From NCBI GenBank assembly GCA_017556505.1, contig JAFYNS010000136.1, positions 2,547-66,546 of the forward strand: a DNA stretch of 64,000 nt, read 5' to 3'. The notes beneath the pieces were generated by a model. The model had not been told where the DNA came from. It searched no databases and worked only from the letters and a program-made list of their open reading frames with translations. Shown in pieces: positions 35,879 through 52,907 of this stretch. This DNA comes from Bacillota bacterium (lineage in GTDB: Bacteria > Bacillota > Clostridia > Peptostreptococcales > Anaerovoracaceae). Each line of letters starts with the position of its first letter. Position 1 is the stretch's first letter. A program made the translations under genes and the position numbers.

Positions 35879-36766
35879 CTACTTCACCACATTGCGCAGT
35901 GTTCCTACACCTTCGATGGTGCATACCACTTCATCGCCCGCCTTTATGTACTTTGGCGGAGTGAATCCCATGCCTACGCCGGATGGAGTTCCGGTTGCAA
36001 TGATATCGCCCGGTTCCAGAGTCATGCCCTGAGACAGTTCACTGATAATGGTGGAAATATCCGCAATCAGCATTCTGGTGTTTGACTGCTGGCGCAGCTC
36101 GCCATTTACATGGCAGGAAATATCCAGCTGCGGAGGGAAAGCAATCTGGCTCTTATGTACGATAGACGGTCCCATAACGGAATAGCCGTCCAGGCTCTTT
36201 CCGCGGAGCCACTGTACGTGCTTTCTCTGAATGGCTCTGGCGCTTACATCATTAAACACAGAATAGCCGAAGATATATTCTTCTGCTTCTTCCGGCTTGA
36301 TGTCACGGCACTCTTTGCCGATGATGACAGCCAGTTCCGCTTCGTAGTCCATTTCTTCGTCACAGGACGGGCAGACAATCGCCTCACCGTGACCGGTGAT
36401 GCGGTTTGCACGTTTGCCGAAGTAAATGTGCTGCTCGTCCTTCTTGCTGGTTGCCGCCTGGAACATGTCTCTTGCTTCTTCCTGGTGGGAACGGTAATTG
36501 ATTCCCACGCAGATAATATCATGAATCGGACGGGTAATCGGTGCCAGCAGCGTTACTCTGTCCAGCGGAATTGCCGCTTCATGTTCCTGATGCCATGCAC
36601 GTTCTGCCATCAGCAGTTCCACTTCACTTACATTAGTGATGAAATCCACCATATCCTTATATTCCTGGTCAACACCCAGCATCTGCAGGGACACTGCATT
36701 CTGTCCGTCAGGCAGAATCGCTCCCAGCTGTCTCTGACCGCTGATTTCGTAAGTTACAAAATTCAT
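35879..36766 (-). CDS. Fumarylacetoacetate hydrolase (FAH) family protein
   Basis: ...ICVGINYRSH...EAELAVIIGK...FNDVSAR...GKSLDG...GDIIATGTPSGVG... Confidence 0.85.
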   Translation of the reverse strand: MNFVTYEISGQRQLGAILPDGQNAVSLQMLGVDQEYKDMVDFITNVSEVELLMAERAWHQEHEAAIPLDRVTLLAPITRPIHDIICVGINYRSHQEEARDMFQAATSKKDEQHIYFGKRANRITGHGEAIVCPSCDEEMDYEAELAVIIGKECRDIKPEEAEEYIFGYSVFNDVSARAIQRKHVQWLRGKSLDGYSVMGPSIVHKSQIAFPPQLDISCHVNGELRQQSNTRMLIADISTIISELSQGMTLEPGDIIATGTPSGVGMGFTPPKYIKAGDEVVCTIEGVGTLRNVVK

Positions 36767-36767
36767 T

Positions 36768-37970
36768 TTACTTAGCCTCCTGTTTCAGATACTGCAGTGC
36801 CATATACGCATAAGCTGCCGCACCTGTACGCAGCACATCTTCGTTAAACAGGGATTCCGGATGATGAACTGCCTGCGGATAGCCTTCTGCAAAGCTTCCT
36901 GCACCCAGATTGAAGCAGACGGACGGTACTGCCTGGCTGATAAATGCAAAGTCTTCACTGCCTACAGACGGTGTTTCATACTTCACGATGTGCTCTTCAC
37001 CCACCAGTTCTGCCGCATAGCCGGTCAGCTGTGCGGAAAGGTCAGGATCGCACTTCACGCAAGGACAGTAGTCAAAGAATCTGGTTTCCACACTGCAGCG
37101 GAGCGCCGCACCCACGCCCTTTGCCACTTCATCGATTCTGGTCTTGATAAACTCATTCTTCACACCGGTAGGATCGTTGGTACGGATAGTACCCCACATT
37201 TCCGCGTGAGCCGGAATGATATTGGATGCATGGCCAGCCTGGAATCTGCAGGTTGTAAATACACCGTACTCATGAGCATCCAGTTCACGGCTGTTGATTT
37301 CAGCCAGAGCCACATGAATCTGTGCTGCTGCCGTAATCGGGTCAATCGCTACATGCGGTGTAGAACCGTGACCGCCCTTACCGGTTACCTTGATATAGTA
37401 CTGTTCACAGGAGGACATTGCTGCACCATCCGCCAGAACGATAACTGTGCCGGACGGAATGTCTGTACCAATCACCACATGGAACATGTACGCCGCATCC
37501 ACCTTTGGATTTTCCAGCAGTCCGTTTTCAATCATATCCTTTGCGCCCAGGAAAATCTCTTCTGCCGGCTGGAATGCCAGCTTTACAGTACCTTCGATCT
37601 CATCTTCATGTTCCTTCAGCAGTTTGGCTGCACCCAGAAGCATGGTAGTATGGAAGTCATGTCCGCAGGCATGCATTTTATTCGGAGACTGGCTTGCAAA
37701 CGGCAGATCCAGCGCTTCCTGAATCGGCAGGGCGTCCATATCTGCTCTCAGCAAAATCGTTTTGCCCGGCTTCTTTCCTCCTGCCAGAGCCACAATACCT
37801 GCCTTACCGCAGTCTTTCGGCTCATAGCCCATGGCCTTCAGCTCTGTACGCACTTTCTCTAATGTATGATTCAGCTCAAATCCGGTTTCCGGATGCATGT
37901 GCAGATCTCTTCTTACTTCTTCCAGCCAGCCCTGCAGCTGACCCGCCTGGTTTAAAATCATGTCTTTCAT
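36768..37970 (-). CDS. M20-family amidohydrolase (N-acyl-L-amino-acid amidohydrolase type), copy 4
   Basis: ...LHMHPETGFE...RADMDALPIQE...MHACGHDFH...AFQPAEE... Confidence 0.85.
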   Translation of the reverse strand: MKDMILNQAGQLQGWLEEVRRDLHMHPETGFELNHTLEKVRTELKAMGYEPKDCGKAGIVALAGGKKPGKTILLRADMDALPIQEALDLPFASQSPNKMHACGHDFHTTMLLGAAKLLKEHEDEIEGTVKLAFQPAEEIFLGAKDMIENGLLENPKVDAAYMFHVVIGTDIPSGTVIVLADGAAMSSCEQYYIKVTGKGGHGSTPHVAIDPITAAAQIHVALAEINSRELDAHEYGVFTTCRFQAGHASNIIPAHAEMWGTIRTNDPTGVKNEFIKTRIDEVAKGVGAALRCSVETRFFDYCPCVKCDPDLSAQLTGYAAELVGEEHIVKYETPSVGSEDFAFISQAVPSVCFNLGAGSFAEGYPQAVHHPESLFNEDVLRTGAAAYAYMALQYLKQEAK

Positions 37971-38053: not shown

Positions 38054-39373
38054 TTAAACAGATTTGTTTTCTGACTGTTTCGATAAGAGTTTGTCCAGGT
38101 AGATGGACTTAAACTGTTTGCTCGCCATTGCCTGCTTCAGCGGCGGCAGCTTCAGGATAACCTGAAAAACAGCAGCCATGGCACGATGGTTTGCGAAGGC
38201 CTGATTGTCGAAAATCAGATTTTGCAGAGTTCCCTTCTCAATGGCCTGTGCCACATAACGATGGGTGCTGTTCACCGGTGTGATAATCTGTACCGGACGG
38301 CGTTCCATCTCAATGGCACCGGTCGGGCAGTTTCTGGCACAGACACCGCAGCCCAGACAGATTTCGCTGTCAATCCATGCCAGCTTGCGCTTGCGTTCTG
38401 CCTCCTCTGCCTGAGACCCGGCAGCCGTGCCCAGTTCCATCTTAATGGCCAGCACAGGACATACTTTGGCACATTTGCCGCAGCCTATGCACTTGTCTCC
38501 GTGAATCTTCGGCAGATAGTTGGTGGTTGCAACCGGCTGCATCGGACTGAAATGACGTGCTGTCTGCAGTGCTTCACAGCAGCAGCCGCAGCAGTTGCAC
38601 AGAAACGCAGGTTTTTCCCTCACGTTTTCTCCAATCTGCACCAGATTGCTTTCGTAAGCCAGCTGCAGAACATCCCTGGCTTCCTCTTTGCTGAGCAGAC
38701 GGACATGCTCGCCATGCTCTGCCAGAGACCGGGCCACATTTCCCAGTGTCAGGCATACATCCATTGGTGCATTGATTTCACAAGGTTTATCCATGTGCAT
38801 CATCTTATGACGGCAGTAACACATACCCAGCCCCACATAGTCCGCATCCTCGATAATATGTGACGCCCGCTCATAATCCAGGATGTAGTTCATTTTCTCA
38901 TTGGTCAGGACCGATTCCTGTACAAACACACGTCCCATTCTGGTTTCTGCCGCAAAGAACAGTTCCTTAATAAAATCTTCTTCCACATTCATGTACTGAT
39001 AGTAAAGTTCCGACAGATACTTCTGATCGATATCGCCGCGGGTGCGCATCAGTGCAAACTCCAGGAAGCCCGCCATCGGAGGCGGCATGACAAACTGGCG
39101 CGCTCCGTTATGCCAGGAGTCTAAAATCAGAGCTTTTTCGCAAAGCTGATCCAGCAGGTGTTCTGCCTGCAGCTGGCTGCAGCCCCAGACGCTGGCCGCT
39201 TTTTTCAAAGTGAAAGGCCGGATTGGCAGCATTGCCACATGGCGTGCTTCATCCTCCGTATACAGTACCTGCAGAATCTTATACAGTGTTTCCGTCGGCG
39301 CTGCCCCCTGTGCGAACAGGTTAATACGCTGCTCCAGGTTTTTATATGCATCTTTCGATGTTAAGTGTCCCAT
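38054..39373 (-). CDS. 4Fe-4S dicluster domain protein of unknown function
   Basis: CIGCGKCAKVCP and CLGCGVCARNCP ferredoxin motifs, plus the unusual LCNCCGCCCE and MCYCRH Cys clusters. The start at 39373 (MGHLTSK) has an AAGGAA RBS. Confidence 0.7.
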   Translation of the reverse strand: MGHLTSKDAYKNLEQRINLFAQGAAPTETLYKILQVLYTEDEARHVAMLPIRPFTLKKAASVWGCSQLQAEHLLDQLCEKALILDSWHNGARQFVMPPPMAGFLEFALMRTRGDIDQKYLSELYYQYMNVEEDFIKELFFAAETRMGRVFVQESVLTNEKMNYILDYERASHIIEDADYVGLGMCYCRHKMMHMDKPCEINAPMDVCLTLGNVARSLAEHGEHVRLLSKEEARDVLQLAYESNLVQIGENVREKPAFLCNCCGCCCEALQTARHFSPMQPVATTNYLPKIHGDKCIGCGKCAKVCPVLAIKMELGTAAGSQAEEAERKRKLAWIDSEICLGCGVCARNCPTGAIEMERRPVQIITPVNSTHRYVAQAIEKGTLQNLIFDNQAFANHRAMAAVFQVILKLPPLKQAMASKQFKSIYLDKLLSKQSENKSV

Positions 39374-39456
39374 AATCGTTCCTTTTCTGCTGACCGCATT
39401 GAGTAATTTAAAGGTATTATAGCATGCAGTATGGGTCATATTGAAGAAAAAAATAA

Positions 39457-39483
39457 CCGGAATGCAGATTTTCTGCACTCCGG
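39457..39483 (-). terminator. Terminator after uxaC
   Basis: CCGGAATGCAGA pairs with TCTGCACTCCGG. TTATTTTTTTCTT follows on the minus strand. Confidence 0.65.
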
Positions 39484-39501
39484 CTTTTACTGTTGTCTTA
39501 T

Positions 39502-40935
39502 TTAAAATTCAAATCCGAAATAGTTTACTGCGTTCTTCCAGCAGATATCTTCTACCATCTGTCCCAGTGCTTCCAGGCTGTCTTCATCTCCCGGATACTG
39601 TCCGCTTTCCACCAGATATCCCAGCTTGTCGCAGAGGATGCGTCGGTAATATTCATGACGTACGAAGGAAGTGAAGCTTCTGGAGTCAGTCAGCATACCC
39701 ACAGAACCGCTGATCTGACCGGTTTCCATGAGCTGGTCAATCTGATCCTGCATACCGCGGATGTGGTCTAAAAGCCACCATGCTGCGCCGTACTGCACCT
39801 TGCCGCTGTCAGAACCGTCAGCTTCTGTTCCTGCTGCAAAGTTTGCTGCCATGGTTGCCATCATGGCACTGTCATTTGGATTCAGGTTGTAGAGAATGGT
39901 CTTCGGCAGATGGCCTTCCCCTTCCAGTCCTCCAAGCAAAGCACTCAGCTTAAACGGATCTGTTGCTTCCCCGATGCTGTCTCCGCCGCCGTCGGCACCG
40001 AATGCTTTCCACACTTTCGGAGAATTGTTTCTGATCGGTCCCAGGTGCAGCTGCATTGCCAGGCCTCGTGCTTCGTATTCAGAAGCCAGGAAGCGAAGCA
40101 GTCCGCCCTGATATACTGCGATTTCTTCTTCAGTCAGAGTGACACCTTCCAGTGCCTTTGCCATGACTGCAGCATGGTCTCCTTCCACATAGCGGAAGTG
40201 AAGGAATCCATGGTCAGTCACCTTGCAGCCTACAGAGCAGAAGAAGTCTAAAGATGCCTTCAGAGCAGAAGTCAGGCCTTCCCAGCTGTCAATGGCAATG
40301 CCGTAACGCTCAGAAAGCTGTGCCAGTGCTCTGTCCCAGTTTTCTGTCTGGTCGATGTTCAGGAAACGGTCCGGACGGAAGGACGGCAGTGTACGGAACG
40401 GTACTTTGCCGGCTTCATATTCTGCTGCCAGCTTCTGATGCCATGCCAGGTCATCCGCCGGGTCGTCGGTGGTGCAGAGGATTTTGGCCTGCGCCTTATC
40501 CAGCAGGGACACCGCATCAAAACCTTCGCTCTGCAGAATTTCGCAGGTCTTATCCCAGATTTCCTTCGCAGTCTTTTCGCTCAGCGGTGTGTAAATGCCA
40601 AAGTAACGCTGCAGTTCCAGATGCGCCCAGTGATATACCGGACTGCCGATGAGTTTTGGCATAATGCGAGCGAATTCGGCAAATTTTGCGTAGTCGTCTG
40701 CCTTACCGGTCACGTATTCTTCTGCCACACCGCAGACACGCATGCAGCGCCACTTGTAGTGATCCGCTTCCAGCCAGACCTGAGTCAGGTTGTCATAGCG
40801 GCGGCGCTCATAAATGTCCTTTGCCGGCAGGTGGTTATGATAGTCGATAATCGGGCAGTCTTCTGCATATTCGAAAAACAGCTTGCGTGCTGTCTCCGTG
40901 GTGAGCAGAAAATCTTTATCCATAAATGCTTTCAT
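39502..40935 (-). CDS. uxaC: Glucuronate isomerase
   Basis: MKAFMDKDFLLTTETARKLFFEYAEDCPIIDYHNHLPAKDIYE... Confidence 0.9.
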   Translation of the reverse strand: MKAFMDKDFLLTTETARKLFFEYAEDCPIIDYHNHLPAKDIYERRRYDNLTQVWLEADHYKWRCMRVCGVAEEYVTGKADDYAKFAEFARIMPKLIGSPVYHWAHLELQRYFGIYTPLSEKTAKEIWDKTCEILQSEGFDAVSLLDKAQAKILCTTDDPADDLAWHQKLAAEYEAGKVPFRTLPSFRPDRFLNIDQTENWDRALAQLSERYGIAIDSWEGLTSALKASLDFFCSVGCKVTDHGFLHFRYVEGDHAAVMAKALEGVTLTEEEIAVYQGGLLRFLASEYEARGLAMQLHLGPIRNNSPKVWKAFGADGGGDSIGEATDPFKLSALLGGLEGEGHLPKTILYNLNPNDSAMMATMAANFAAGTEADGSDSGKVQYGAAWWLLDHIRGMQDQIDQLMETGQISGSVGMLTDSRSFTSFVRHEYYRRILCDKLGYLVESGQYPGDEDSLEALGQMVEDICWKNAVNYFGFEF

Positions 40936-40947
40936 CAGAATTTCTCC

Positions 40948-42243
40948 TTAGAATTTTTCCTTGTTGATCCACAGGCCCAGAGCAGGGTTTGGAATGTAGT
41001 AGATTTCTTCTCCGTCCTCCATGGTGTTGTAACCGTACTGCAGGGTTTCCGGATTATAACGGGCAGTCATTTCATCGTAGTCCGCCCAGCCGAAGCCCAC
41101 GCCTTCGATTTCCTCACGGGTAATCTTATCCTTCTTCACCGCATAGGTGATGGAGAAACGTTCGTCGGAAGAACCGTGAATCAGGTGCGCTGCTGCACCC
41201 ATGTTGTCACGGAGATCCTGATTTTCTTCCTTTTCGAACTGTTCCAGGGTATTCAGGCGGCCCTTGTAGCCGTACTTGCGGATCAGCTTGTCCACCTGCA
41301 GGTCCTCCCCAAAACGTTCAATTCCCGGTGCCAGTACCAGCAGCTGTCCGCCGTCAGCGATAGCCATGCGGGTACGGTATACGGACTTATTTCCCAGCCA
41401 TGTAGTTCTGAATTCGGAAGGATCCAGGTAAACCACACACTTTTTGATACCGGTTTCCACGAAGTCGATATTCTTTTCCTGTGCCAGCTTAATGGCTTTT
41501 TCCAGTACGCATCGTGTATCACCGATGAACATACCGTGCTGATTTATCACACCGCCCGGTGCTGTGCAGACAGTCAGTACAAAGAGAATCGGACGGTCTG
41601 CCAGGAAGTGCGTCATACCGTAGTCAAAGATTTTGCGGACCGGAGTGTGGTCCTTGCCCATCATGCGCTCCATGCCGTAGACAGCGCCTACCATGTGGCT
41701 CTTATTAATCATGTCCGCACCGCCGACACCCACGAACAGGTTCTTTGCGTGGTTTGCCATACAGATGACTTCGTGAGGAACCACCTGGCCGATGGACAGA
41801 ATCAAATCATATTTTTCCTCCATCACCAGCTTGTTGATTTCCACGTCTACCGGATCGTGCCACAGACCCTCAGTGATTTCTTCCAGGTATTCTGCAGGAA
41901 CTTCACCGATTTTCACTACGTCAGTACGCCAGTTGTGTTCCAGGAACCGCTCGAAGGGAATATCGCCGAACATGTGCGCCGCTTCTTCTGCAGTCACAGG
42001 CACATGGGTTCCCAGTGCCGGCAGAATGTCCACTTCACAGCCCATTTCCACCAGTGCGTGATAGTACACGTTAGTGATGAAACCGGAGTTGGAGTGAAAG
42101 CGTGTAAAGTCAGGCGGAATAATCAGTACATGGTGAAGTTCACCATGCTCTGCCTGCCAGTCATTCAGGCTTTCCAGCAGAGCCTGACGGATTTCTTCCG
42201 GGCTCATGATTGCTTCTGTATTTGCATAATAGAATTTTTCCAT
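40948..42243 (-). CDS. LarA-like (DUF2088) nickel-pincer-dependent 2-hydroxyacid racemase/epimerase family protein
   Basis: VLIIPPDFTRFHS, ILPALGTHVP, GQVVPHEVICMANHAKN and INKSHMVG align by eye with the LarA segments SSDHTRPVP, ATGFHRP, ESHFFAGFSGGRK and MANHSG, including the catalytic His positions. Confidence 0.6.
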   Translation of the reverse strand: MEKFYYANTEAIMSPEEIRQALLESLNDWQAEHGELHHVLIIPPDFTRFHSNSGFITNVYYHALVEMGCEVDILPALGTHVPVTAEEAAHMFGDIPFERFLEHNWRTDVVKIGEVPAEYLEEITEGLWHDPVDVEINKLVMEEKYDLILSIGQVVPHEVICMANHAKNLFVGVGGADMINKSHMVGAVYGMERMMGKDHTPVRKIFDYGMTHFLADRPILFVLTVCTAPGGVINQHGMFIGDTRCVLEKAIKLAQEKNIDFVETGIKKCVVYLDPSEFRTTWLGNKSVYRTRMAIADGGQLLVLAPGIERFGEDLQVDKLIRKYGYKGRLNTLEQFEKEENQDLRDNMGAAAHLIHGSSDERFSITYAVKKDKITREEIEGVGFGWADYDEMTARYNPETLQYGYNTMEDGEEIYYIPNPALGLWINKEKF

Positions 42244-42257
42244 AACAAAACTCCTTC

Positions 42258-43106
42258 TTATACACCGCTGTATGCGCTGAAACCGCCGTCAACCGGAATT
42301 ACGATACCGGTTACAAAACCTGCCGCCTTCTGATCCACCAGGAAGAGCAGCGCACCCAGCAGTTCTTCAGGCTGACCGAATCTTCCCATCGGAGTAGCTG
42401 CCAGGATTTTGCCGGTACGTGCAGTCGGTGTGCCGTCTTCATTGAAGAGCAGGCTGCGGTTCTGATCGGTGGCAAAGAAGCCAGGTGCAATGGCGTTTAC
42501 ACGGATGCCCACCTTGCTGAAGTGCACAGCCAGCCACTGTGTAAAGTTGGAAATGGCAGCCTTTGCGCCGGAGTAAGCCGGAATCTTTGTCAGCGGAGTG
42601 AACGCGTTCATGGAGCTTACGTTGATGATATTGCAGCCTTCGCGGCCAATCATATCCTTTGCAAATTCCTGCGTTGGAATCAGAGTTCCGATGAAGTTCA
42701 GGTTGAATACAAACTGCAGGTCTTCATCATCAAGATCAAAGAAAGTCTTGGTATCTGCATCCAGGTCGCCCATTTCGAAGTATTCCTTGTCAGTGTTTGC
42801 ACGTGCGTTGTTTCCGCCGGCACCGTTAATCAGGATGTCGCATGGGCCGTAAATCTTCAGCACTTCTTCATGTGCCGCCTTTACGCTTTCCTTATTGGTC
42901 ACGTCAACCTGCACAGCTGCCGCTTCTCCTCCCATTGCGCGGATTTCTTCACATACGGCTTCCGCCTTTGAAACAGTACGGTTCAGGATTGCAACTTTCG
43001 CTCCGCAGAGAGCCAGTGCCTTGGCGAATTCCTTGCAAAGCACGCCTGCGCCGCCGGTTACAACGGCTACTTTTCCTTCTAAATTCGGTCTATAGCATAA
43101 TTCCAT
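42258..43106 (-). CDS. SDR-family oxidoreductase, fructuronate/mannonate oxidoreductase-like (YjmF/UxuB-type)
   Basis: MELCYRPNLEGKVAVVTGGAGVLCKE...NVSSMNAF...YSGAKAA... The start at 43106 is preceded by GGAGG. The track ORF extends to 43304 across the repeat region. Confidence 0.75.
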   Translation of the reverse strand: MELCYRPNLEGKVAVVTGGAGVLCKEFAKALALCGAKVAILNRTVSKAEAVCEEIRAMGGEAAAVQVDVTNKESVKAAHEEVLKIYGPCDILINGAGGNNARANTDKEYFEMGDLDADTKTFFDLDDEDLQFVFNLNFIGTLIPTQEFAKDMIGREGCNIINVSSMNAFTPLTKIPAYSGAKAAISNFTQWLAVHFSKVGIRVNAIAPGFFATDQNRSLLFNEDGTPTARTGKILAATPMGRFGQPEELLGALLFLVDQKAAGFVTGIVIPVDGGFSAYSGV

Positions 43107-43134
43107 AGTCTTAACCTCCAACAAATGGCTCCAA

Positions 43135-43349
43135 GTACGCCTTTTCTTAAAAAACAGATGTTTTGGAGTACAAATTTCATTATAAAACTTCAAATAATCG
43201 TCTTTTAACCGCGAAAAATGTATTTTTTCAACAATTACAGTACTCCAAAATGCAAAATTCAGTGTGTTTGGCGTACTTTTCACGCTGCCAGACAGGTAAT
43301 GCAATCCATTTTGTACTCCAAAACACCCAAATCAACGCATTTGGAGTAC
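43135..43349. repeat. Triplet A of the 37-bp bipartite palindrome RTACKCC-N23-GGMGTAY
   Basis: Copies at 43135-43171 (GTACGCC...GGAGTAC), 43240-43276 (GTACTCC...GGCGTAC) and 43313-43349 (GTACTCC...GGAGTAC). The spacer is exactly 23 nt in each. Confidence 0.9.
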
Positions 43350-43352
43350 TTT

Positions 43353-44234
43353 TTACCTTCCGGATTGCGAAAGTACAAATCGTTCAACACCAGCTGCCAC
43401 GCCGTCCTCATCGCAGGAGGCGGTAATCCAGTCAGCTGCCGCCTTTACGGCAGGTTCTGCATTCTCCATGGCGATACCGATTCCGGCTGCACGGATCATG
43501 GTGATGTCATTTAAGCCGTCGCCGAAAGCGATGGTCTTTTCGTGCGGTACGCCAAGACGGTCCGCAAGATCCAGCAGAGCCTGCCCCTTATTGGCATTCA
43601 TCTGGTTCAGCTCAATGTTCTGCGGAGATGAGCTGGTAGCCAGGATTCCCGGAAACACCTGCGGAATCTCTGTAAGCAGGCGGGACCGCAGCTCCATATC
43701 CCGGGTAAAGAACTGAATCTTCTGCACGTTCATGCCCGGTCTCCCGCCGCAGTATTCTGCCACGAAGGCCTTCAGTTCCGGCACCGGTCTGCGCAGGTCA
43801 TGATACATCTTCCGGATCTTCGCATCCTCGATCACCGCGTCCACCTGGTCCTTCAGAGCCGAAGTCATCCAGGCTGCATTGTCCATATAACAGTCATAGA
43901 GCACCGGCTTGTCATCCAGCCAGGCCATAATGTCCACCGCCTGCTGCCATGGCATTTCCGCCCCGCAAAGCGTGTCCATACAAGGCTCTCCGGCTTCGTC
44001 CCGCACCTTCATCACTGCTGCTCCGTTGATGGTTATGGCGTAATGCACAAAAGGCAGCTGCCGGATTACATCCGGCATGCCGCCATAAAATCTTCCTGTG
44101 GTAGGTACCACCGCCCAGCCGGCTTCTGACGCCGCCTTCAGCGCAGCAAAATTCCCCGGGCTCAGCTCCTTTGCAGAGTTCAGCAAAGTGCCGTCCAGGT
44201 CCAGGGCGATGATACCTGCAGGAACCTTACGCAT
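43353..44234 (-). CDS. Cof-type HAD-IIB phosphatase
   Basis: MRKVPAGIIALDLDGTLLNS...FGDGLNDITM... The start at 44234 overlaps the gnd stop by 8 nt. Confidence 0.8.
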   Translation of the reverse strand: MRKVPAGIIALDLDGTLLNSAKELSPGNFAALKAASEAGWAVVPTTGRFYGGMPDVIRQLPFVHYAITINGAAVMKVRDEAGEPCMDTLCGAEMPWQQAVDIMAWLDDKPVLYDCYMDNAAWMTSALKDQVDAVIEDAKIRKMYHDLRRPVPELKAFVAEYCGGRPGMNVQKIQFFTRDMELRSRLLTEIPQVFPGILATSSSPQNIELNQMNANKGQALLDLADRLGVPHEKTIAFGDGLNDITMIRAAGIGIAMENAEPAVKAAADWITASCDEDGVAAGVERFVLSQSGR

Positions 44235-45678
44235 TGTAAGTACCTGCGGAAGTATTGCCGCCGTGGCCGGTCCAGTTGGTGTGGTAGAACTGGCCTCTAG
44301 GCTGGTCGATTCTTTCGTATGTATGTGCACCGAAGTAGTCACGCTGCGCCTGAAGCAGGTTTGCAGGCAGACATTCGGTAGTGTATCCGTCGAAGTAATT
44401 CAGAGCGGAAGAGAATGCAGGCATTGGAATACCCGCCTTTACTGCGTAAGCAACCACTTCTCTCCATGCAGGAATCAGACCCTTGATGGTTTCTGCGAAA
44501 TAGTCATCCAGCAGCAGGTTGTCCAGTTCCGGATTCTTTTCGTAAGCTTCCTTGATCTTACCCAGGAATACGCTGCGGATGATGCAGCCGCCTCTCCACA
44601 TGAGAGCGATGCCGCCGTAGTTCAGGTTCCAGCCATAAGTCTTGGCTGCAGTACGCATGAGAGTATAACCCTGAGCGTAAGAAATAATCTTGGACGCATA
44701 CAGAGCCTTACGGATTGCTTCGATGAAGGCCTTGCGGTCACCCTCAAAAGCAGGGATTTCACGTGGGAATACCTTAGCAGCATTCACACGTTCTGCCTTC
44801 TGTGCAGACAGGCATCTGGAGAATACCGCTTCACCGATCATAGTCAGAGGAACGCCTTCATCCAGTGCGGAAACAGCAGTCCACTTGCCGGTGCCCTTCT
44901 GTCCTGCAGTGTCCAGAATATAGTTTACAGTTGTTTCACCGTTTTCGTCCTTGTAACCCAGAATATCTCTGGTGATTTCGATCAGGTAGCTGTCCAGCTC
45001 GGTCTTGTTCCATTCAGCGAAGACTTCGTGCATTTCTTCTGCAGTCATGCCCATACCGTCCTTCATCAGCTGGTATGCTTCGCAGATCAGCTGCATGTCG
45101 CCGTATTCGATACCGTTGTGAACCATCTTTACGAAGTGGCCTGCACCGTTTTCACCAACCCATTCACAGCAAGGTGCGCCGTCTTCCACCTTGGCACAGA
45201 TTGCCTGGAAAATCGGCTTGATGTGTTCCCATGCTGCAGGGGAACCGCCCGGCATCAGGGATGGACCGGTCAGCGCGCCTTCTTCACCGCCGGAAACGCC
45301 GGAACCTACATACAGCAGGCCCTTGCTTTCCACGTAAGCAGTTCTTCTGATAGTGTCAGGGAAGTGGCTGTTGCCGCCGTCGATCAGGATATCGCCTTCT
45401 TCCAGGTACGGAATCAGGGTATCAATCAGATCATCAACCGCCTGACCAGCCTTAACCATCATCATGATCTTTCTTGGCTTTTCCAGGCTTGCTGCCAGCT
45501 CTTCCAGGGAGTAAGTGCCGATGATGTTCTTGCCGGCAGCTCTGCCCTCTACGAAATTCTTCACCTTTTCGGTGGTTCTGTTATATACAGCTACAGTGAA
45601 ACCTCTGGATTCCATGTTCATTACCAGATTTTCACCCATTACGGCCAGACCTACCAGGCCGATATTTGCTTTTTTCAT
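44227..45678 (-). CDS. gnd: 6-phosphogluconate dehydrogenase (decarboxylating)
   Basis: MKKANIGLVGLAVMGENLVMNMESRGFTVAVYNRT...GNSHF... Confidence 0.9.
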   Translation of the reverse strand: MKKANIGLVGLAVMGENLVMNMESRGFTVAVYNRTTEKVKNFVEGRAAGKNIIGTYSLEELAASLEKPRKIMMMVKAGQAVDDLIDTLIPYLEEGDILIDGGNSHFPDTIRRTAYVESKGLLYVGSGVSGGEEGALTGPSLMPGGSPAAWEHIKPIFQAICAKVEDGAPCCEWVGENGAGHFVKMVHNGIEYGDMQLICEAYQLMKDGMGMTAEEMHEVFAEWNKTELDSYLIEITRDILGYKDENGETTVNYILDTAGQKGTGKWTAVSALDEGVPLTMIGEAVFSRCLSAQKAERVNAAKVFPREIPAFEGDRKAFIEAIRKALYASKIISYAQGYTLMRTAAKTYGWNLNYGGIALMWRGGCIIRSVFLGKIKEAYEKNPELDNLLLDDYFAETIKGLIPAWREVVAYAVKAGIPMPAFSSALNYFDGYTTECLPANLLQAQRDYFGAHTYERIDQPRGQFYHTNWTGHGGNTSAGTYNA

Positions 45679-45741
45679 TGCTCGTTCCTCCTGCCTTCCC
45701 GGCAAAATCTTTCGCTGCGGACGCTGCCGCTTCAGCGGATC

Positions 45742-46821
45742 CTATCTCTGCACTCTCGCGTTGCCTGCATAGATGTCCCAAACCTGCTTTTCGTCTGCAG
45801 GTTCTGCGTAGTCATTCAGGCTGCTCGCTGCCAGTACGCCGGTTGCCCAGCCGAACTGCAGACACTTTTCAGGTTCCCAGCCCTGCATCAGACCGTACAG
45901 CAGACCGCCGGTGAAACCGTCGCCGCCGCCGATTCTGTCCATTACAGGAATGGTTCTAGGCTCTTCAATGCACCACTTGCCGTCAGCCAGCAGAATGCCG
46001 CCCCACAGGTGTTCGTTTGCACTGATAACCTGTCTTAAAGTAGTACCGAATACCTTTGCGTTGGAGTACTTTTCCTTAACCTGGTTAATCATTTCCTGGA
46101 AGTTTGCAATCTTGGAGGAAATGTCCTTACCGCCTGCTTCAGGACCCGCAAAGCCAAGGCACAGCTGGAAGTCTTCTTCGTTGCCTACCAGAACGTCAGC
46201 AACGCTTGCGATTCTGTGGAACGCATCTCTCAGTTCTTCTTCTCTGCCCTTCCAGAAGGTTGCTCTGTGGTTCAGGTCAAAGCTTACCAGAGTACCGTAC
46301 TTCTTCGCAGCTTCTGCCACAGCCAGGCAGAACTGAGTTGTTTCTTCACTCATAGCTGCAATCAGACCGGAGATATGCAGAATACCAACACCTTCCTGAC
46401 CGAAGATTCTTTCGATGTCGAATTCTTCGATGGACAGGGTTCTGCCCACTTCGCCGGCTCTGTCATTCCATACTCTTGGTGCTCTCAGACCGAAGCCGGA
46501 GTCAGCGATGTTAAACTGGTGACGGAAGCCCCATGGACCGCCCTGTTCTACTTCTGCACCTTCATAACGGATGTTTCTGGAACGCAGTTCGCTCTTGATG
46601 AACTCTGCGATCGGGCTTCCCTTTACGAACTTGGTCAGCACCAGACATTCCTTACCCAGGGAAGAAGAAACGTTTAATACGTTGCTTTCTGCACTGGTGC
46701 ACTGCATGATGAAGCGGTTGCTGTTATGTACAGCCATTCTGTCTTCCGGAGTGATACGGACACCCATGCTGGTTGGGCATGCGATGGCATAGCGGTAATT
46801 TTCATGGAGATTCAGTTCCAT
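45742..46821 (-). CDS. PfkB-family sugar(-acid) kinase, 2-dehydro-3-deoxygluconokinase-like
   Basis: ...VSFDLNHR...VLVGNEEDF...DRIGGGDGFTGGLLYG... The start at 46821 has an AAGGAA RBS. Confidence 0.7.
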   Translation of the reverse strand: MELNLHENYRYAIACPTSMGVRITPEDRMAVHNSNRFIMQCTSAESNVLNVSSSLGKECLVLTKFVKGSPIAEFIKSELRSRNIRYEGAEVEQGGPWGFRHQFNIADSGFGLRAPRVWNDRAGEVGRTLSIEEFDIERIFGQEGVGILHISGLIAAMSEETTQFCLAVAEAAKKYGTLVSFDLNHRATFWKGREEELRDAFHRIASVADVLVGNEEDFQLCLGFAGPEAGGKDISSKIANFQEMINQVKEKYSNAKVFGTTLRQVISANEHLWGGILLADGKWCIEEPRTIPVMDRIGGGDGFTGGLLYGLMQGWEPEKCLQFGWATGVLAASSLNDYAEPADEKQVWDIYAGNARVQR

Positions 46822-47008
46822 AGTTGTAGTTCCTTTCTTATTTAAACGTTCATTTATTAACAAAACTTTCGCTGCATGCTGCAGAAGCACACAGCCTGAT
46901 ATTTTATTCTACAACAGATTAGATTGCAATGGAATTGCATTTCATCGACAAAAACATTGCAAAAACACGCATCTCATGCTATACTGCAGAAAAAACGGAG
47001 GTCTTCGT

Positions 47009-47827
47009 ATGTCCAGCATTTTCCATTACCGCGACAGTTCCATATACAGCCATCATTCCATCGACCAGCATCCCGATGTGGACGAATTTGCAATGCATGC
47101 CCATGAGTGGCTTGAGATTCTCTACTTCATTTCCGGCCGTGGAACTTACCTGGTGGAAGGAAGCCTGTATCCAATGGAACCCCACGATGTTTTTATTCTT
47201 CGTCCTGCAGAGATGCACAAGCTGGTCATTGATCCTGAAGTTCCTTATGAACGGATGGTGATTCATTTTTCTCCTGAAATACTGAACGAGCTGGACCCTT
47301 CCCACGATCTGCTGCGGCCTTTCTATGACCGTCCTCTGGGTCAGCAGAACCGGTACAGCCTGGAAAGCGACCCGGATGGTCTTCTGCGTGCCGCTTTTTC
47401 CGCCTTTAAATTCGACAAGGTGCCCGATGTCCGTATGAACCTGATGGCTCGTCTTCTGCTGATTCTGACCGCACTTGACGGGCTTCACGGTTCCGGTCAG
47501 CTTCATACACCGGCCCCCGGTCTTCAGAGTGAGCTAGTTGCCTATGTAAATGAGCACCTCTTTGAAGATATCTCCGTGCAGACCATCGCCGATGCTTTTT
47601 ACCGAAGCAAATCCCAGGTCAGCCGTATCTTTCACCAGGCCACCGGTACCTCCCTCTGGGACTATGTGGTCATCAAACGTATGATGACAGCCCGTGCCAT
47701 GATCCAGCGCGGAGAAGCCGCCAATACAGCCTGTACTGCCTGCGGTTTCAGCGATTATTCGGCCTTCTACCGGGCCTACCGGAAACATTTCGGCAATGCT
47801 CCAAAGGAAGATGCTCCCCGTCTCTAG
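47009..47827 (+). CDS. AraC-family transcriptional regulator (cupin + HTH)
   Basis: N-terminal cupin (HAHEWLEILYFISGRGTY) and a C-terminal AraC HTH (...IADAFYRSKSQVSRIF...GFSDYSAFYRAYRKHFG). GGAGG RBS before 47009. Confidence 0.85.
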   Translation: MSSIFHYRDSSIYSHHSIDQHPDVDEFAMHAHEWLEILYFISGRGTYLVEGSLYPMEPHDVFILRPAEMHKLVIDPEVPYERMVIHFSPEILNELDPSHDLLRPFYDRPLGQQNRYSLESDPDGLLRAAFSAFKFDKVPDVRMNLMARLLLILTALDGLHGSGQLHTPAPGLQSELVAYVNEHLFEDISVQTIADAFYRSKSQVSRIFHQATGTSLWDYVVIKRMMTARAMIQRGEAANTACTACGFSDYSAFYRAYRKHFGNAPKEDAPRL

Positions 47828-47832
47828 CAAAA

Positions 47833-49053
47833 TCAGAAGTTTTCTTCCCGGTATACAGAAGGTGTAGTACCATACTGTTTTTTAAACACACGAATAAAAT
47901 AGGTTGTATCCTGAAATCCACATTCTTCTGCAATATCCTGAATCCGCTTTCTTTCATCCCGGAGCAGAATCAAAGACCGCTCCATCCGCTTTCTGTGGAC
48001 ATACTCCGTCAAAGTGCAGCCACATTCTTTGCGGAACAGTTTGGACAGATAACTGCTGTTCACATTAATCTGTTCTGCGATAGTGCTGAGAGATAAATCT
48101 GCAGTGACATCGTAATGAATCAGCGTAATGGCCTTTCCCACATAATAGGAGTACTGTTTCAAAGAGTGATTTTTTACCAGAAGACAGTAGTCACGAATCA
48201 TATCTTCCTGTACCTGCAAGCTTTCACGGATGGTCCGGGCCTGTTCGATGTGCTGAGCATAGGCTGATGAGAGACGGTGAATATGAAGTGGATGAACGCC
48301 GCCGTATTCGGCTGCTTTGCGGAGAAGAGTCTTCAGAATGATCAGGTAGTTTTTCCGGTTCCGCAGAGAGTCAGGGTGGCGCGGTTCAGTTCCATTGTTA
48401 AATACAGAAGATGCCACAGAGGTCAGAAGATGAAGTTTTCCTTCGCTCACCGCCTTCATCAGAATTTTTTCATTTTCATAGTTTGCTTCCAGGACGGAAA
48501 GACTTAAAGGTGCGTCATAAGGGTCTCCATTCACAGCTGAAACCGGTATTGGAGTACTGTGGTCACGAATCTCATATTCAATGTATTCCATGATGTATTG
48601 ATCCTTTGATCCCCAGATTCTGGTTCCCAGCGTATTGGCTAGGGTCAGAAGCCAGTTTTCATCCTCGATAACAGGCAAATCAGCATAATAAATCATAAGC
48701 TGTTTTATTTTAGCTTCCGTCAAAGAAAGGCGAGACGCTTTTTTTTCTATAAAATCCCGGTCAGGAAGGCTCAGAAGAAAAGGACCGATGAAAAAATAAG
48801 TCCCATCAGGCAGCCGCATAAAGACATATTTACAGTCATATTCATCAACAAAGCGGTAGATAACGTTATTACTGGCGGCATTCAGGGAATTTTCCAGAAT
48901 GGAAATATAATTGTCTGTATCATAAAGAAGGCTGCGAAGGCCCAGATCCACAGATGACGAAATACAGATCTCAGGTTCAGTCAATATAGTGCTTGAAATG
49001 TGCATTGCAGAAAGAAGACTGCGGGTAAAGTTTAATTCGGCTGTATATTCCAT
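47833..49053 (-). CDS. AraC-family transcriptional regulator with a large N-terminal sensor domain
   Basis: C-terminus ...IAEQINVNSSYLSKLFRKECG...CGFQDTTYFIRVFKKQYG. Confidence 0.8.
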   Translation of the reverse strand: MEYTAELNFTRSLLSAMHISSTILTEPEICISSSVDLGLRSLLYDTDNYISILENSLNAASNNVIYRFVDEYDCKYVFMRLPDGTYFFIGPFLLSLPDRDFIEKKASRLSLTEAKIKQLMIYYADLPVIEDENWLLTLANTLGTRIWGSKDQYIMEYIEYEIRDHSTPIPVSAVNGDPYDAPLSLSVLEANYENEKILMKAVSEGKLHLLTSVASSVFNNGTEPRHPDSLRNRKNYLIILKTLLRKAAEYGGVHPLHIHRLSSAYAQHIEQARTIRESLQVQEDMIRDYCLLVKNHSLKQYSYYVGKAITLIHYDVTADLSLSTIAEQINVNSSYLSKLFRKECGCTLTEYVHRKRMERSLILLRDERKRIQDIAEECGFQDTTYFIRVFKKQYGTTPSVYREENF

Positions 49054-49229: not shown

Positions 49230-50624
49230 ATGAAAAATACCCCCGTAACACTTCGTCCGTTCGGATGGAGAGACAGAGTCGGCTACATGGTTGGTAATGT
49301 GGCCAATGACTTTACTTTTATTTTCGCAAGCTTATATTTACAGGTATTTTATACTGACGTTCTTGGCATCAACGCCGGTCTGGTAGGTACCATGTTCCTG
49401 ATTGCACGTATTGTAGATGCATTTACAGATACTGCAATGGGCCGCATCTGTGACAAGACCAAGGCTACCAAAAACGGTAAGTTCCGTCCTTGGCTGCTGC
49501 GTGCCTGCGGTCCTGTGGCACTGGCATCCTTCCTGATGTATCAGACATTTGCCACCGGTCTGACCATGCCGCTGCGTATTGCTTATATGTTTATCACATA
49601 TCTGCTGTGGGGCAGTGTATGTTATACCTGCATCAACATTCCTTACGGTTCCATGGCATCCGTAATGAGTAACGAACCGGACCACCGTGCATCTCTGTCC
49701 ACTTTCCGCGGTGTGGGTTCCATGATTCCGCAGATTCTGGTAGGGGTTGTGGTTCCTTTGTTCCTGTACACCACCATGGAAGACGGAACCAAGGTTGCCA
49801 ATGCATCTGCCTTCCCTGTGGTTGCACTGATTACTTCCATTCTGGCAGTGATCTGCTACATTATCTGCTATTTCCTGTGTACAGAACGTGTGAAGGTTAC
49901 CGAAGAAAGCCAGAGTGTTTCCTTTAAGGACACCCTGAAGGCTCTGTCCGGAAACCGTGCTCTGATAGGTATTGCACTGGTATTCGTATGCTATCTGGGT
50001 GCACAGATGCTGAATCAGACCATCAACAACTATATCTTCAAGGACTACTTTGGAAACACTACGGGGCTTTCTGTAATGAATGCAGCAGGTTTCGCACCGG
50101 CGCTGATTCTGGCACCTTGCGCAGTACCTCTGGCCCGTAAGTTCGGTAAGAAGGAGCTGGGCATCTTTGCATCTGCAATGGGTACCGTTGCCTTCGGTGC
50201 ACTGTTCTTGATGCGTACCACCAACATGTGGCTGTACACCATCATCAATATTGTGGGCCTGCTGGGCTTCGGTCTGTTCAACCTGATTATCTGGGCATTT
50301 GTCAGCGACGTAATTGATGATCAGGAAGTACGCACCGGAAAGCGTGATGACGGTACCATCTATGCAGTATGTTCCTTTGCACGTAAGCTGGGCCAGGCTA
50401 TCGCCAGTGCACTGGGAGGCTGGAGTTTAGGCTGGATCGGTTATGTGGAAGGTTCCATGTCCGGTCAGTCCGATGCAGTTCGTGAAGGTATCTATAACAT
50501 TGCTACTCTGGTGCCGATGATTCTGTATCTGGCAGTAGGTATCTGTCTGCTGGTAATCTATCCTCTGAGCAAGAAGAAGGTTAACGAAAATACTGCAGTT
50601 CTGAGAGTCAGAAGAGGCGAATAA
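49230..50624 (+). CDS. GPH-family glycoside/glucuronide:cation symporter (MFS_2)
   Basis: ...GYMVGNVANDF...LIARIVDAFTDTAMGRICDKT...GKFRPWLL... is typical of MelB/UidB-type carriers. Confidence 0.8.
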   Translation: MKNTPVTLRPFGWRDRVGYMVGNVANDFTFIFASLYLQVFYTDVLGINAGLVGTMFLIARIVDAFTDTAMGRICDKTKATKNGKFRPWLLRACGPVALASFLMYQTFATGLTMPLRIAYMFITYLLWGSVCYTCINIPYGSMASVMSNEPDHRASLSTFRGVGSMIPQILVGVVVPLFLYTTMEDGTKVANASAFPVVALITSILAVICYIICYFLCTERVKVTEESQSVSFKDTLKALSGNRALIGIALVFVCYLGAQMLNQTINNYIFKDYFGNTTGLSVMNAAGFAPALILAPCAVPLARKFGKKELGIFASAMGTVAFGALFLMRTTNMWLYTIINIVGLLGFGLFNLIIWAFVSDVIDDQEVRTGKRDDGTIYAVCSFARKLGQAIASALGGWSLGWIGYVEGSMSGQSDAVREGIYNIATLVPMILYLAVGICLLVIYPLSKKKVNENTAVLRVRRGE

Positions 50625-50627
50625 TTT

Positions 50628-52907
50628 ATGAGAACAGTTTTAAATATAAACAGAGACTGGGTCTTTGTAAAAAATATGACAGAAGCTCCGGCCAGCCTGC
50701 CGCAGACCGGAGAACAGGTAAATCTTCCCCATACCTGGAATGGGGAAGACGGTCAGGACGGCGGAAACAACTATTTCCGCGGTACCTGCTGTTATGCCAG
50801 AAACATTCTGAAAAGTGAACTGCCGGATGGTGAAAAATATTTCCTGCAGATTCACGGTGCCAACTCTTCCGCTGAAGTATACATGAACGGTAAGCGTCTG
50901 GCCCATCACGATGGCGGTTATTCCACCTGGCGTGTAGAAATCACCAATACTTTGAGAAATGAAAACTGTCTGGTCATTCTGGTGGACAACAGCGCCAATG
51001 AAACAGTTTATCCACAGACTGCAGACTTTACCTTCTATGGCGGCCTGTACCGTGATGTGGAAATTGTGGCCGTTCCGGAAACACATTTTGAGCTGGAACA
51101 TCTGGGATGTCCCGGCATCTACGTGACACCTGTCATGGACGGCAGCTGTGCAAAGGTTGCCGTTCAGACCTATGTGATGGACAGAAAAGACGGCGACCAG
51201 ATCCGTTTCCGCATTCTGGAAGCAGACGGAACTGTGGCAGCTGAATATACCGGAAGCAGCGAGAAAATGGATTTTGTGCTGGAAAATGCACATCTTTGGG
51301 ACGGTACTAACGACCCGTACCTGTACACTGCAGAAGCATCCATTCTCAGAAACGGGGAAGCACTGGACAAGGTAAGCACACGGTTCGGATGCAGAAGCTT
51401 CGAAATCCATCCGGAAAGAGGTTTTATCCTTAACGGAAGAGAATATCCTCTGCGGGGTGTGAGCCGCCATCAGGACCGTTGGGGCATCGGCAATGCCCTT
51501 CTGAAAGAGCATCACGATGAAGATATGGACCTGATCTGCGAAGTGGGCGCCAACACCATACGTCTGGCCCACTACCAGCATGACCAGTACTTCTATGATC
51601 TGTGCGATGAGCGGGGGATGGTGGTATGGGCGGAAATCCCTTACATTTCCCGCCACATGCCGGAAGCCAACACCAACACTCATAATCAGATGAAAGAACT
51701 GATTACCCAGTGTTACAACCACCCAAGCATCTGCGTCTGGGGGCTGTCCAACGAAATCACCATGGACGGTGCCAAAGATCCGGATATGATCCGAAATCAC
51801 CGTCAGCTGAACGATCTGGTTCACAGGATGGACCCGAATCGTCCGACTGTCATCGCCTGCATTTCCATGTGCGGTATGGATGAAGAATATGTTCACATTC
51901 CTGATGTGGTCAGCTATAACCACTATTTTGGATGGTACGGCGGCAGTATGGAAGAGTACGGACCATGGTTCGACAAGTTCCATGCAAAATATCCGGATAC
52001 TCCAATCGGCTGCTCCGAGTACGGCTGTGAGGCCCTCAACTGGCATAATTCCAATCCGGAAAGCGGAGACTATTCAGAAGAATATCAGGCCATGTACCAC
52101 GAATCCCTGATCCGCCAGCTTTTCAGCCGGAAATACATCTGGGCGACGCATGTGTGGAACATGTTCGACTTCGGTGCTGATGCCAGAGCCGAAGGCGGTG
52201 AAAACGGCCAGAACCACAAGGGTCTGATTACCATTGACCGTAAATACAAGAAGGATTCCTTCTATGCATATACGGCCTGGCTCAATCCGGAACCAATGAT
52301 TCACCTCTGCGGCAAACGCTACATCGACCGTGTGGAAGACATAACGAAGATTACCGTATATTCCAACCAGCCGGAAGTGGAACTTTTTGCAAACGGTGTC
52401 AGTCTGGGCAGAAAGCAGGCAGCAGACCACTTCTTCTATTTCGATGTACCGAACCGCGGTGAAACGAAGCTGGAAGCTGTGGCGGGCAATCTTCGTGATG
52501 AAAGCATCATCCGCAAGGTGGATACCATGAACCAGGACTATATTCTGAGAGAGCAGGGAGCGGTGCTCAACTGGTTCGATATTGTGGAAGTAGAAGGACG
52601 TTTCAGCTTAAACGATAAGCTGGGGGATATCTTTAAGACCTTCCGCGGCAAAATCTGGTTTGCCGGCCTCTTCATGACTCTTGCCAGAAAAATGAGCCAG
52701 GGTACGCCGCAGTCAGATAAGGGCGATAAAAAGAAGAAAAAGAAGAAGGCAAAGAACCCTGAAATGAACAGCGGTGTCATGGACATGATCAGTAACTTTA
52801 CTGTTCTGCGTTTTACCGGAATGCTGGGAATGCGCAATGTAACCTTTACCAAGGAAGAACTGCTGAATATGAATGCCAAGCTGAATAAAATAAGAAAACC
52901 AAAATAG
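50628..52907 (+). CDS. GH2 glycoside hydrolase, beta-glucuronidase candidate, with a C-terminal extension
   Basis: WGLSNEITMDG (acid/base Glu), CSEYGCEA (nucleophile Glu), NHYFGWYGG, and N-H-K at codons 529-531 (nt 52212-52220), which matches the N-x-K carboxylate-recognition motif of glucuronidases. Lys-run KKKKKKKAK at approx 52728-52754. Confidence 0.7.
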   Translation: MRTVLNINRDWVFVKNMTEAPASLPQTGEQVNLPHTWNGEDGQDGGNNYFRGTCCYARNILKSELPDGEKYFLQIHGANSSAEVYMNGKRLAHHDGGYSTWRVEITNTLRNENCLVILVDNSANETVYPQTADFTFYGGLYRDVEIVAVPETHFELEHLGCPGIYVTPVMDGSCAKVAVQTYVMDRKDGDQIRFRILEADGTVAAEYTGSSEKMDFVLENAHLWDGTNDPYLYTAEASILRNGEALDKVSTRFGCRSFEIHPERGFILNGREYPLRGVSRHQDRWGIGNALLKEHHDEDMDLICEVGANTIRLAHYQHDQYFYDLCDERGMVVWAEIPYISRHMPEANTNTHNQMKELITQCYNHPSICVWGLSNEITMDGAKDPDMIRNHRQLNDLVHRMDPNRPTVIACISMCGMDEEYVHIPDVVSYNHYFGWYGGSMEEYGPWFDKFHAKYPDTPIGCSEYGCEALNWHNSNPESGDYSEEYQAMYHESLIRQLFSRKYIWATHVWNMFDFGADARAEGGENGQNHKGLITIDRKYKKDSFYAYTAWLNPEPMIHLCGKRYIDRVEDITKITVYSNQPEVELFANGVSLGRKQAADHFFYFDVPNRGETKLEAVAGNLRDESIIRKVDTMNQDYILREQGAVLNWFDIVEVEGRFSLNDKLGDIFKTFRGKIWFAGLFMTLARKMSQGTPQSDKGDKKKKKKKAKNPEMNSGVMDMISNFTVLRFTGMLGMRNVTFTKEELLNMNAKLNKIRKPK

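Follow-up and report, generated by a model that had tools for sequence, protein, structure and literature searches.

A gene cluster on a 64,000-nucleotide stretch of contig JAFYNS010000136.1 (assembly GCA_017556505.1, positions 2,547 to 66,546; hereafter the window), from a Bacillota bacterium of the Anaerovoracaceae, appears to encode a shunt that carries glucuronate into the pentose phosphate pathway and replaces the UxuA-KdgK-KdgA branch of hexuronate degradation. We give this reading a probability of about 80%. The cluster is built around a PfkB-family kinase, a 6-phosphogluconate dehydrogenase (Gnd) and a LarA homolog, which together with associated genes we call the cassette. An earlier note on this DNA (the original prediction) proposed the route glucuronate to fructuronate to mannonate to gluconate to 6-phosphogluconate to ribulose-5-phosphate. 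Our computational analysis supports it through the missing classical genes, the presence of larBCE, the assignment of the LarA homolog to LarAH group 18, and gene linkage; family membership, linkage, absences, cofactor genes and the identities of the genes themselves were observed directly. The route is a published idea re-derived here and is not new.

Genes in the window were called from a listing of open reading frames combined with Pfam and NCBIfam profile searches using curated cut-offs. Both sources agree with the original prediction on six genes, all on the minus strand:

45742-46821, minus strand: PfkB-family sugar-acid kinase of 359 amino acids (PF00294; the start is Met24 of the longest open reading frame)
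44227-45705, minus strand: gnd, decarboxylating NADP-dependent 6-phosphogluconate dehydrogenase (TIGR00873, 767 bits against a cut-off of 427)
43353-44216, minus strand: Cof-type HAD-IIB sugar-phosphate phosphatase (TIGR00099, 153 bits against a cut-off of 137)
42258-43106, minus strand: short-chain dehydrogenase/reductase (SDR) of the D-mannonate oxidoreductase (fructuronate reductase) type (NF006132, 447 bits against a cut-off of 281)
40948-42243, minus strand: LarA homolog, group 18 (Pfam Lar_N, E 3e-13; NF052594, 616.6 bits against a cut-off of 500)
39502-40935, minus strand: UxaC, glucuronate/galacturonate isomerase (PF02614, 552 bits; NF002794, 513 bits against a cut-off of 387)

Uronate isomerase, fructuronate reductase, LarA-type epimerase and Gnd are thus co-encoded at this locus. 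UxaC is 44% identical to its Escherichia coli counterpart.

In the proposed route, glucuronides would be taken up by a GPH-family symporter and split by an adjacent beta-glucuronidase. UxaC would convert the glucuronate to fructuronate, and the SDR would turn this into D-mannonate. The group-18 LarA homolog would then invert C2 by transient hydride transfer to a nickel-pincer nucleotide, giving D-gluconate, which the PfkB kinase would phosphorylate at C6. Gnd would convert the resulting 6-phosphogluconate to ribulose-5-phosphate and CO2, and ribulose-5-phosphate would enter the non-oxidative pentose phosphate pathway (Rpe, RpiB, transketolase). One NAD(P)H would be spent and one NADPH regained, leaving the branch redox-neutral. 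What the epimerase, the kinase and the phosphatase act on is inferred in every case, and the full reading, with epimerisation ahead of phosphorylation, stands at slightly better than even odds.

The LarA homolog is the central enzyme of the scheme. It scored no more than 44 bits on every LarA-family model other than NF052594, a model named 'nickel-dependent putative hexonate epimerase', which is the counterpart of LarAH group 18 in Desguin et al. 2020 (PMC7583248). The protein, whose placement among characterised homologs had been called for, is thus a member of group 18. It was aligned with LarA of Lactobacillus plantarum, GntE2 (TM0442) of Thermotoga maritima and a group-19 sequence from the PMC7583248 dataset. 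Using the list of cofactor and catalytic residues in that paper, D45, R48, H80, H157, K167, H183 and K286 of the window protein correspond to LarA D72, R75, H108, H174, K184, H200 and K298. The catalytic histidines that had been picked out by eye therefore hold in the alignment, and the catalytic and cofactor residues are invariant in the 81 cassette sequences collected. The nearest PDB entry is 4NAR (E 4e-28), whose aligned residues agree with the TM0442 (GntE2) sequence in the 2020 dataset.

The original prediction pointed to published D-gluconate 2-epimerases of the LarA superfamily, and rightly so: groups 19 and 20 (GntE1, and GntE2 of T. maritima) interconvert D-mannonate and D-gluconate in vitro (PMC7583248). 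Group 18 shares with them a signature in a loop, alpha11 and alpha14, and is only hypothesised there to be a hexonate epimerase, on the basis of this common active-site signature. The window protein carries the group-18 version, D-R-H-H-E-V-K-H...W-L-N-K...A-A-L-I-H-S. The 2020 supplement labels the group 'G2E3' and lists as its neighbours SDR (36%), Gnd (32%), a ribokinase-family kinase (16%) and UxaC (12%) in 25 genomes. A 2024 paper from the same field adds a eukaryotic GntE, and in the part of it available a group-18 enzyme is not among the additions. We propose that the window protein is a D-mannonate/D-gluconate C2 epimerase dependent on the nickel-pincer nucleotide, as its family and residues suggest.

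The two middle steps could run in the opposite order, with PfkB acting as a D-mannonate kinase and the LarA homolog epimerising 6-phospho-D-mannonate to 6-phosphogluconate. Cell extracts of Lactobacillus suebicus do phosphorylate first and then epimerise 6-phosphomannonate (Valk et al. 2020, PMC6978723), although the kinase candidates in that organism are GntK homologs and not PfkB proteins. Km values for D-mannonate 2-epimerisation, in the part of the source available, range from 3.8 to 120 mM (9.4-120 mM for enzymes assigned GntE), so that the natural substrate could be a derivative. Against this, free mannonate is turned over 197 times per second by the sister enzyme GntE2 (PMC7583248). The residue at the position of LarA I362 is Ser in group 18 but Lys or Arg in groups 19 and 20, so that group 18 gains no obvious charge for binding a phosphate. 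Gene context fits both orders equally. Because the sister enzymes act on the free acid and group 18 shows no added positive charge at the signature positions, we favour epimerisation first by about two to one and regard phosphorylation first as possible though distinctly less probable. In either case the cassette kinase is proposed to be a hexonate 6-kinase that would give 6-phosphogluconate directly or via 6-phosphomannonate.

Conservation across genomes bears on whether these genes work together. A scan for relatives with one genome per species gave at least 254 loci. We analysed the 80 best, which are 71-94% identical and come without exception from gut or rumen Clostridia. Of the related loci, 45 have 4.6 kb or more of sequence upstream (the full-flank set). 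In 41 of them the LarA homolog is immediately preceded, in the same orientation, by the genes for PfkB and Gnd. The kinase-gnd-larAH arrangement is thus not due to chance. The phosphatase lies within the cassette in 26 full-flank loci, the mannonate-forming SDR adjoins it in 28, and UxaC directly follows in 31 of the 69 loci with enough downstream sequence. At locus L028, from an Anaerovoracaceae metagenome-assembled genome (MAG; L028:1775-11272), UxuA, a mannitol-dehydrogenase-type UxuB, KdgK and Eda are joined to the array PfkB2-Gnd-Cof-LarAH. Since L028 joins uxuA-uxuB-kdgK-eda to the cassette, mannonate is likely the branch point between the classical set and the cassette. This one cluster holds two different PfkB kinases, and a gene of the inositol-monophosphatase family follows larAH.

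These loci also bear on the substrate. The LarA homolog might act on some other 2-hydroxy acid (another hexonate, an aldarate or a uronate derivative), with the link to gnd serving another purpose. Desguin et al. hypothesise just 'a hexonate' for group 18 and doubt mannonate as the native substrate of group 19, and their supplement lists KduI neighbours in 12% of group-18 contexts (PMC7583248). In about one third of the full-flank loci, neither an SDR nor UxaC adjoins the core of kinase, gnd and epimerase. The adjacency of the mannonate-forming SDR and the fusion in L028 nevertheless speak for mannonate. Moreover, Gnd is a standard, equivalog-level 6-phosphogluconate dehydrogenase, LarA enzymes all invert the alpha carbon only, and the sole C2 epimer of gluconate is mannonate. 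We consider a different substrate improbable and retain the mannonate-to-gluconate assignment.

The genome from which the window derives is a 2.40-Mb MAG in 198 contigs, 94.4% complete, whose closest relatives are labelled Anaerovoracaceae. We searched the whole assembly with six-frame profile searches and with E. coli proteins by tblastn. The window was already thought to lack UxuA and Eda/KdgA, and neither mannonate dehydratase UxuA (PF03786; E. coli UxuA) nor the 2-keto-3-deoxy-6-phosphogluconate aldolase Eda/KdgA (PF01081; E. coli Eda) was found there or elsewhere in the assembly. UxaA, mannitol-dehydrogenase-type UxuB, KduI and ExuT gave no tblastn match in the assembly, nor did the GntP/GntU permeases or Zwf. 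The search for gntK that had been suggested alongside those for uxuA and kdgA/eda was likewise negative for both GntK types: the assembly has no real match to TIGR01313 (P-loop GntK) or tblastn match to E. coli GntK, and TIGR01314 (FGGY GntK) detected only GlpK and one further FGGY kinase (123-140 bits against a cut-off of 648). Neither is a candidate gluconate kinase, as the second lies beside a GlpA-like dehydrogenase and a DUF1667 gene in a glycerol-type cluster. An IlvD/Edd-family match that might have been a gluconate or 6-phosphogluconate dehydratase proved to be a standard IlvD (792 bits).

In this genome gnd, UxaC, the LarA homolog and the kinase subfamily of the cassette are each represented once, and the only other PfkB protein is a ribokinase. 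Rpe, RpiB and a split transketolase are present. With no Zwf and no gluconate permease of the usual family, no source of 6-phosphogluconate other than the cassette is visible here. This accounts for the position of the single gnd in the cluster.

The reverse case is that the classical isomerase pathway operates, with the kinase being KdgK, uxuA and eda lying in the unassembled 6%, and gnd and the LarA homolog being unrelated neighbours. The kinase does resemble kinases of 2-keto-3-deoxygluconate (KDG), and the assembly is incomplete. However, four independent enzymes of KDG routes (UxuA, UxaA, KduI and Eda) are all missing, and kinase, gnd and larAH are linked across families. The same absences recur in relatives: we tallied 50 related cassette genomes (G001-G050, loci L013-L085), of which 34 have UxaC adjoining the cassette. 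UxuA is present in five of the 50 and missing from 33 of the 34, found in one only; Eda is present in 17 of the 50 and absent from 28 of the 34. A true KdgK also coexists with the cassette kinase in L028. We regard the classical explanation as very improbable and proceed with the shunt.

The original prediction saw the kinase as the weak point of the route, as it looks KdgK-like. By profile models this description stands: the best NCBIfam similarities are to KDG kinases, with no cut-off reached (85.6 bits against 440 for the best KDG-kinase model), and among PDB entries T. maritima KdgK comes closest (2AFB, E 1e-30). The concern is lessened by the linkage to gnd, by the conservation of the kinase (75-99% identity across related loci) and by the coexistence seen in L028. 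On KDG-kinase models the KdgK of L028, a genuine one, reaches 206-475 bits; the value of 475 comes from the kinase part of the aldolase-kinase model, on which the cassette kinase gets 161. Alignment of these two proteins is confined to the C-terminal 221 amino acids, the nucleotide-binding half, with 33% identity. Because L028 holds a separate KdgK beside it, the cassette kinase is, judged by these comparisons of sequence, not KdgK. More than 8000 database homologs of the cassette kinase pass the search thresholds, named only 'sugar kinase', and as many relatives (>8000) of the epimerase do so.

A LarA-type epimerase needs its cofactor, and the original prediction asked for larBCE to be sought. 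LarB, LarC and LarE are all present above cut-off in this genome. They form one operon, larE-larB-larC, split over contigs C27 (3.0 kb) and C37 (6.4 kb) and followed by peptide/nickel-type ABC transporter genes named from open reading frame translations alone. The two contigs share 326 nt with 97% identity at their ends, pointing to strain variation in the lar region. Mis-binning of these contigs was judged unlikely: their tetranucleotide distance is typical of the small contigs in the bin, their ends overlap, and LarC occurs in 9 of 12 genomes of the genus, this one included. In the goat-rumen Clostridia MAG at locus L083, the order is PfkB-Gnd-Cof-LarAH-LarE-LarB-LarC, with the lar genes (L083:11317-13973) directly after the LarA homolog. 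This order links the cassette with the nickel-pincer cofactor. LarC of several congeners is split between two reading frames (residues 1-88 and 74-411), resembling the known larC1/larC2 frameshift. An exact-sequence look-up of LarC gave no match.

The cofactor genes are distributed unevenly among relatives. LarC occurs in 19 and LarB in 15 of the 50 related cassette genomes, and almost all of the 20 genomes whose epimerase is most similar to that of the window have neither. In genomes that have them, the lar genes are often found on contigs of 35-100 kb or longer, which makes a general assembly problem an unlikely cause. All the cassette epimerases nevertheless keep their cofactor-binding residues. 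Either these MAGs lose the operon for some hidden reason or many of these bacteria depend on cofactor made by others. If the absence is real, the nickel-pincer nucleotide or a precursor must come from neighbours, and the organism studied here would be a producer. We think such provisioning unlikely; if true, the nickel-pincer cofactor would be a shared resource of the gut community, like corrinoids. As the window's organism has lar genes, the gaps in its relatives do not weaken the reading for the window itself.

Several observations weigh against the proposed shunt. The nearest characterised relatives of the cassette kinase are KDG kinases, and the LarA homolog is only 25-28% identical to characterised GntE enzymes. 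In the LarA and pathway literature, as far as its texts were available, no published assay of any group-18 enzyme or of this kinase subfamily was found. The absences in a 94%-complete MAG of 198 contigs are not absolute. The two contigs that carry the lar genes are small (3.0 and 6.4 kb), though their composition fits the bin. If the epimerase depended strictly on cofactor made by the same cell, the lack of larB and larC in most related cassette genomes would be difficult to explain. Finally, the presence of a phosphatase and a kinase in one operon is unexplained; more speculatively, the phosphatase possibly recycles hexonate that was phosphorylated in the wrong epimeric form.

The closest known system is that of Thermotoga, where the route was proposed in 2012-2013 and the GntE activity was demonstrated in 2020 (PMC3750489 and PMC7583248). 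T. maritima has a pectin-induced, UxaR-regulated operon, aldH-pelB-gnd-uxaR-uxaE-uxaD-gntE-gntK, proposed by Rodionova et al. 2012 (cited in PMC3750489), and its GntE2 (TM0442) is LarAH20. The two systems share the succession of uronate, fructuronate and mannonate, C2 epimerisation by the LarA superfamily, 6-phosphorylation and formation of ribulose-5-phosphate by Gnd. They also share an SDR-type reductase, LarA homolog, kinase and gnd in one operon, as well as conserved catalytic and cofactor residues. The window epimerase, however, belongs to group 18 and is 25% identical to GntE2. GntK is the kinase in Thermotoga, whereas that of the window cassette is PfkB/KdgK-like and not of the GntK type. 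The window cassette includes a Cof phosphatase and its operon has no UxaE. Its feed is apparently glucuronides rather than pectin, with a beta-glucuronidase link in gut bacteria, and the classical kdgAK-uxuBA operon that Thermotoga keeps has been lost from the window genome.

The neighbour list published for LarAH group 18 in 2020 matches the window operon, and nothing differs in kind, but the linkage of kinase and gnd in gut Clostridia (41/45) is far tighter than in the 25-genome sample. The galacturonate pathway of L. suebicus likewise runs from mannonate through 6-phosphogluconate to ribulose-5-phosphate without the KDG branch and is redox-neutral (PMC6978723). It differs in that phosphorylation was shown to precede epimerisation, and in its kinase candidates, GntK homologs as against the PfkB type of the window. 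Literature searches for a named mannonate kinase, and for a version of the pathway in gut Clostridia, turned up only this L. suebicus paper. With the Ashwell pathway of E. coli (UxaC, UxuB, UxuA, KdgK, KdgA) the window shares the UxaC step and the reduction of fructuronate. By contrast, UxuA and KdgA/Eda are absent from the window genome, the reductase is an SDR and not a mannitol-dehydrogenase-type UxuB, and the window route would lose the carboxyl carbon as CO2 instead of passing it into pyruvate.

The host excretes drugs, hormones and bilirubin into the gut mainly as glucuronides. To our knowledge, little has been worked out about what Clostridia do with the glucuronate set free from them. 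Given its occurrence in at least 254 species-level genomes of the searched collection and the more than 8000 relatives each of kinase and epimerase, the cassette could be the usual glucuronate route in Oscillospiraceae and Anaerovoracaceae. Being redox-neutral and losing the carboxyl carbon as CO2, it would alter predicted fermentation balances. That the cofactor genes occur so patchily invites the question whether species share the cofactor. The group-18 LarA enzyme, the putative PfkB-type hexonate kinase and the conserved phosphatase are targets for bench work.

The genes upstream of the operon are consistent with glucuronides as its feed:

46976-47827, plus strand: divergent AraC-family regulator (AraC_binding and HTH_18)
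47833-49053, minus strand: second AraC-family regulator (profile matches)
49230-50624, plus strand: GPH-family symporter, glucuronide-transporter-like (TIGR00792, 321 bits)
50628-52907, plus strand: GH2 beta-glucuronidase of the gut-bacterial class (PDB 8GET, 6MVH and 6MVG)

The divergent AraC-family regulator likely controls the operon; nine related loci have such a regulator in the same position. The second AraC-type regulator recurs with GH2 and transporter in L037, L042 and L045, which suggests that it is linked to that pair. The nearest equivalog of the symporter is 'glucuronide transporter' (262 bits, under the cut-off of that model). The GH2 protein matches 8GET, 6MVH and 6MVG over its full length with 1047-1116 bits; these are entries that we take to be FMN-binding gut glucuronidases. 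It matches 7KGZ ('beta-glucuronidase') with 764 bits, and on NF050095 its 573 bits fall short of the cut-off of 950. GH2 adjoins the cassette in six related loci. From these matches, the enzyme is the probable source of free glucuronate.

Two further features concern transcription of the operon:

43107-43352: intergenic gap of 246 nt between the phosphatase and SDR genes, with a promoter-like site and palindromes
39455-39485, minus strand: intrinsic-terminator-like hairpin of 14 pairs followed by a T run, directly after the uxaC stop

The gap contains the promoter-like site TTAAAA-18-TATAAT (43208-43179), and repeated palindromes, GTACTCCAAA...TTTGGAGTAC, fill it beside this good -35/-10 match. 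It may thus hold an internal promoter for SDR-larAH-uxaC, so that the gene string may be read as one or two transcripts. The SDR gene starts with ATG at 43106, with a GGAGG site ahead. The hairpin is a strong predicted terminator and would end the operon after uxaC.

Beyond it, at 38054-39373 on the minus strand, lies a gene for a 439-amino-acid Fe-S protein. The protein has two ferredoxin-type 4Fe-4S motifs together with CNCCGCCC and CYCRHK cysteine clusters, and an N-terminal domain that matches no family. We rejected it as a member of the pathway, since its gene is separated from uxaC by the terminator and has no counterpart in any of the 80 related loci. The two closest relatives have an M20 gene right after uxaC with no Fe-S gene between, so the Fe-S gene looks like an insertion. 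Further along the minus strand, at 35879-37970, are an M20 amidohydrolase and an FAH-family hydrolase, followed by AzlC and AzlD, a stretch kept only in the two closest relatives. The FAH-family protein scores 164 bits to 2,4-didehydro-3-deoxy-L-rhamnonate hydrolase, far under the cut-off. Elsewhere in the window, a single open reading frame of 2406 amino acids occupies 1811-9031 on the minus strand.

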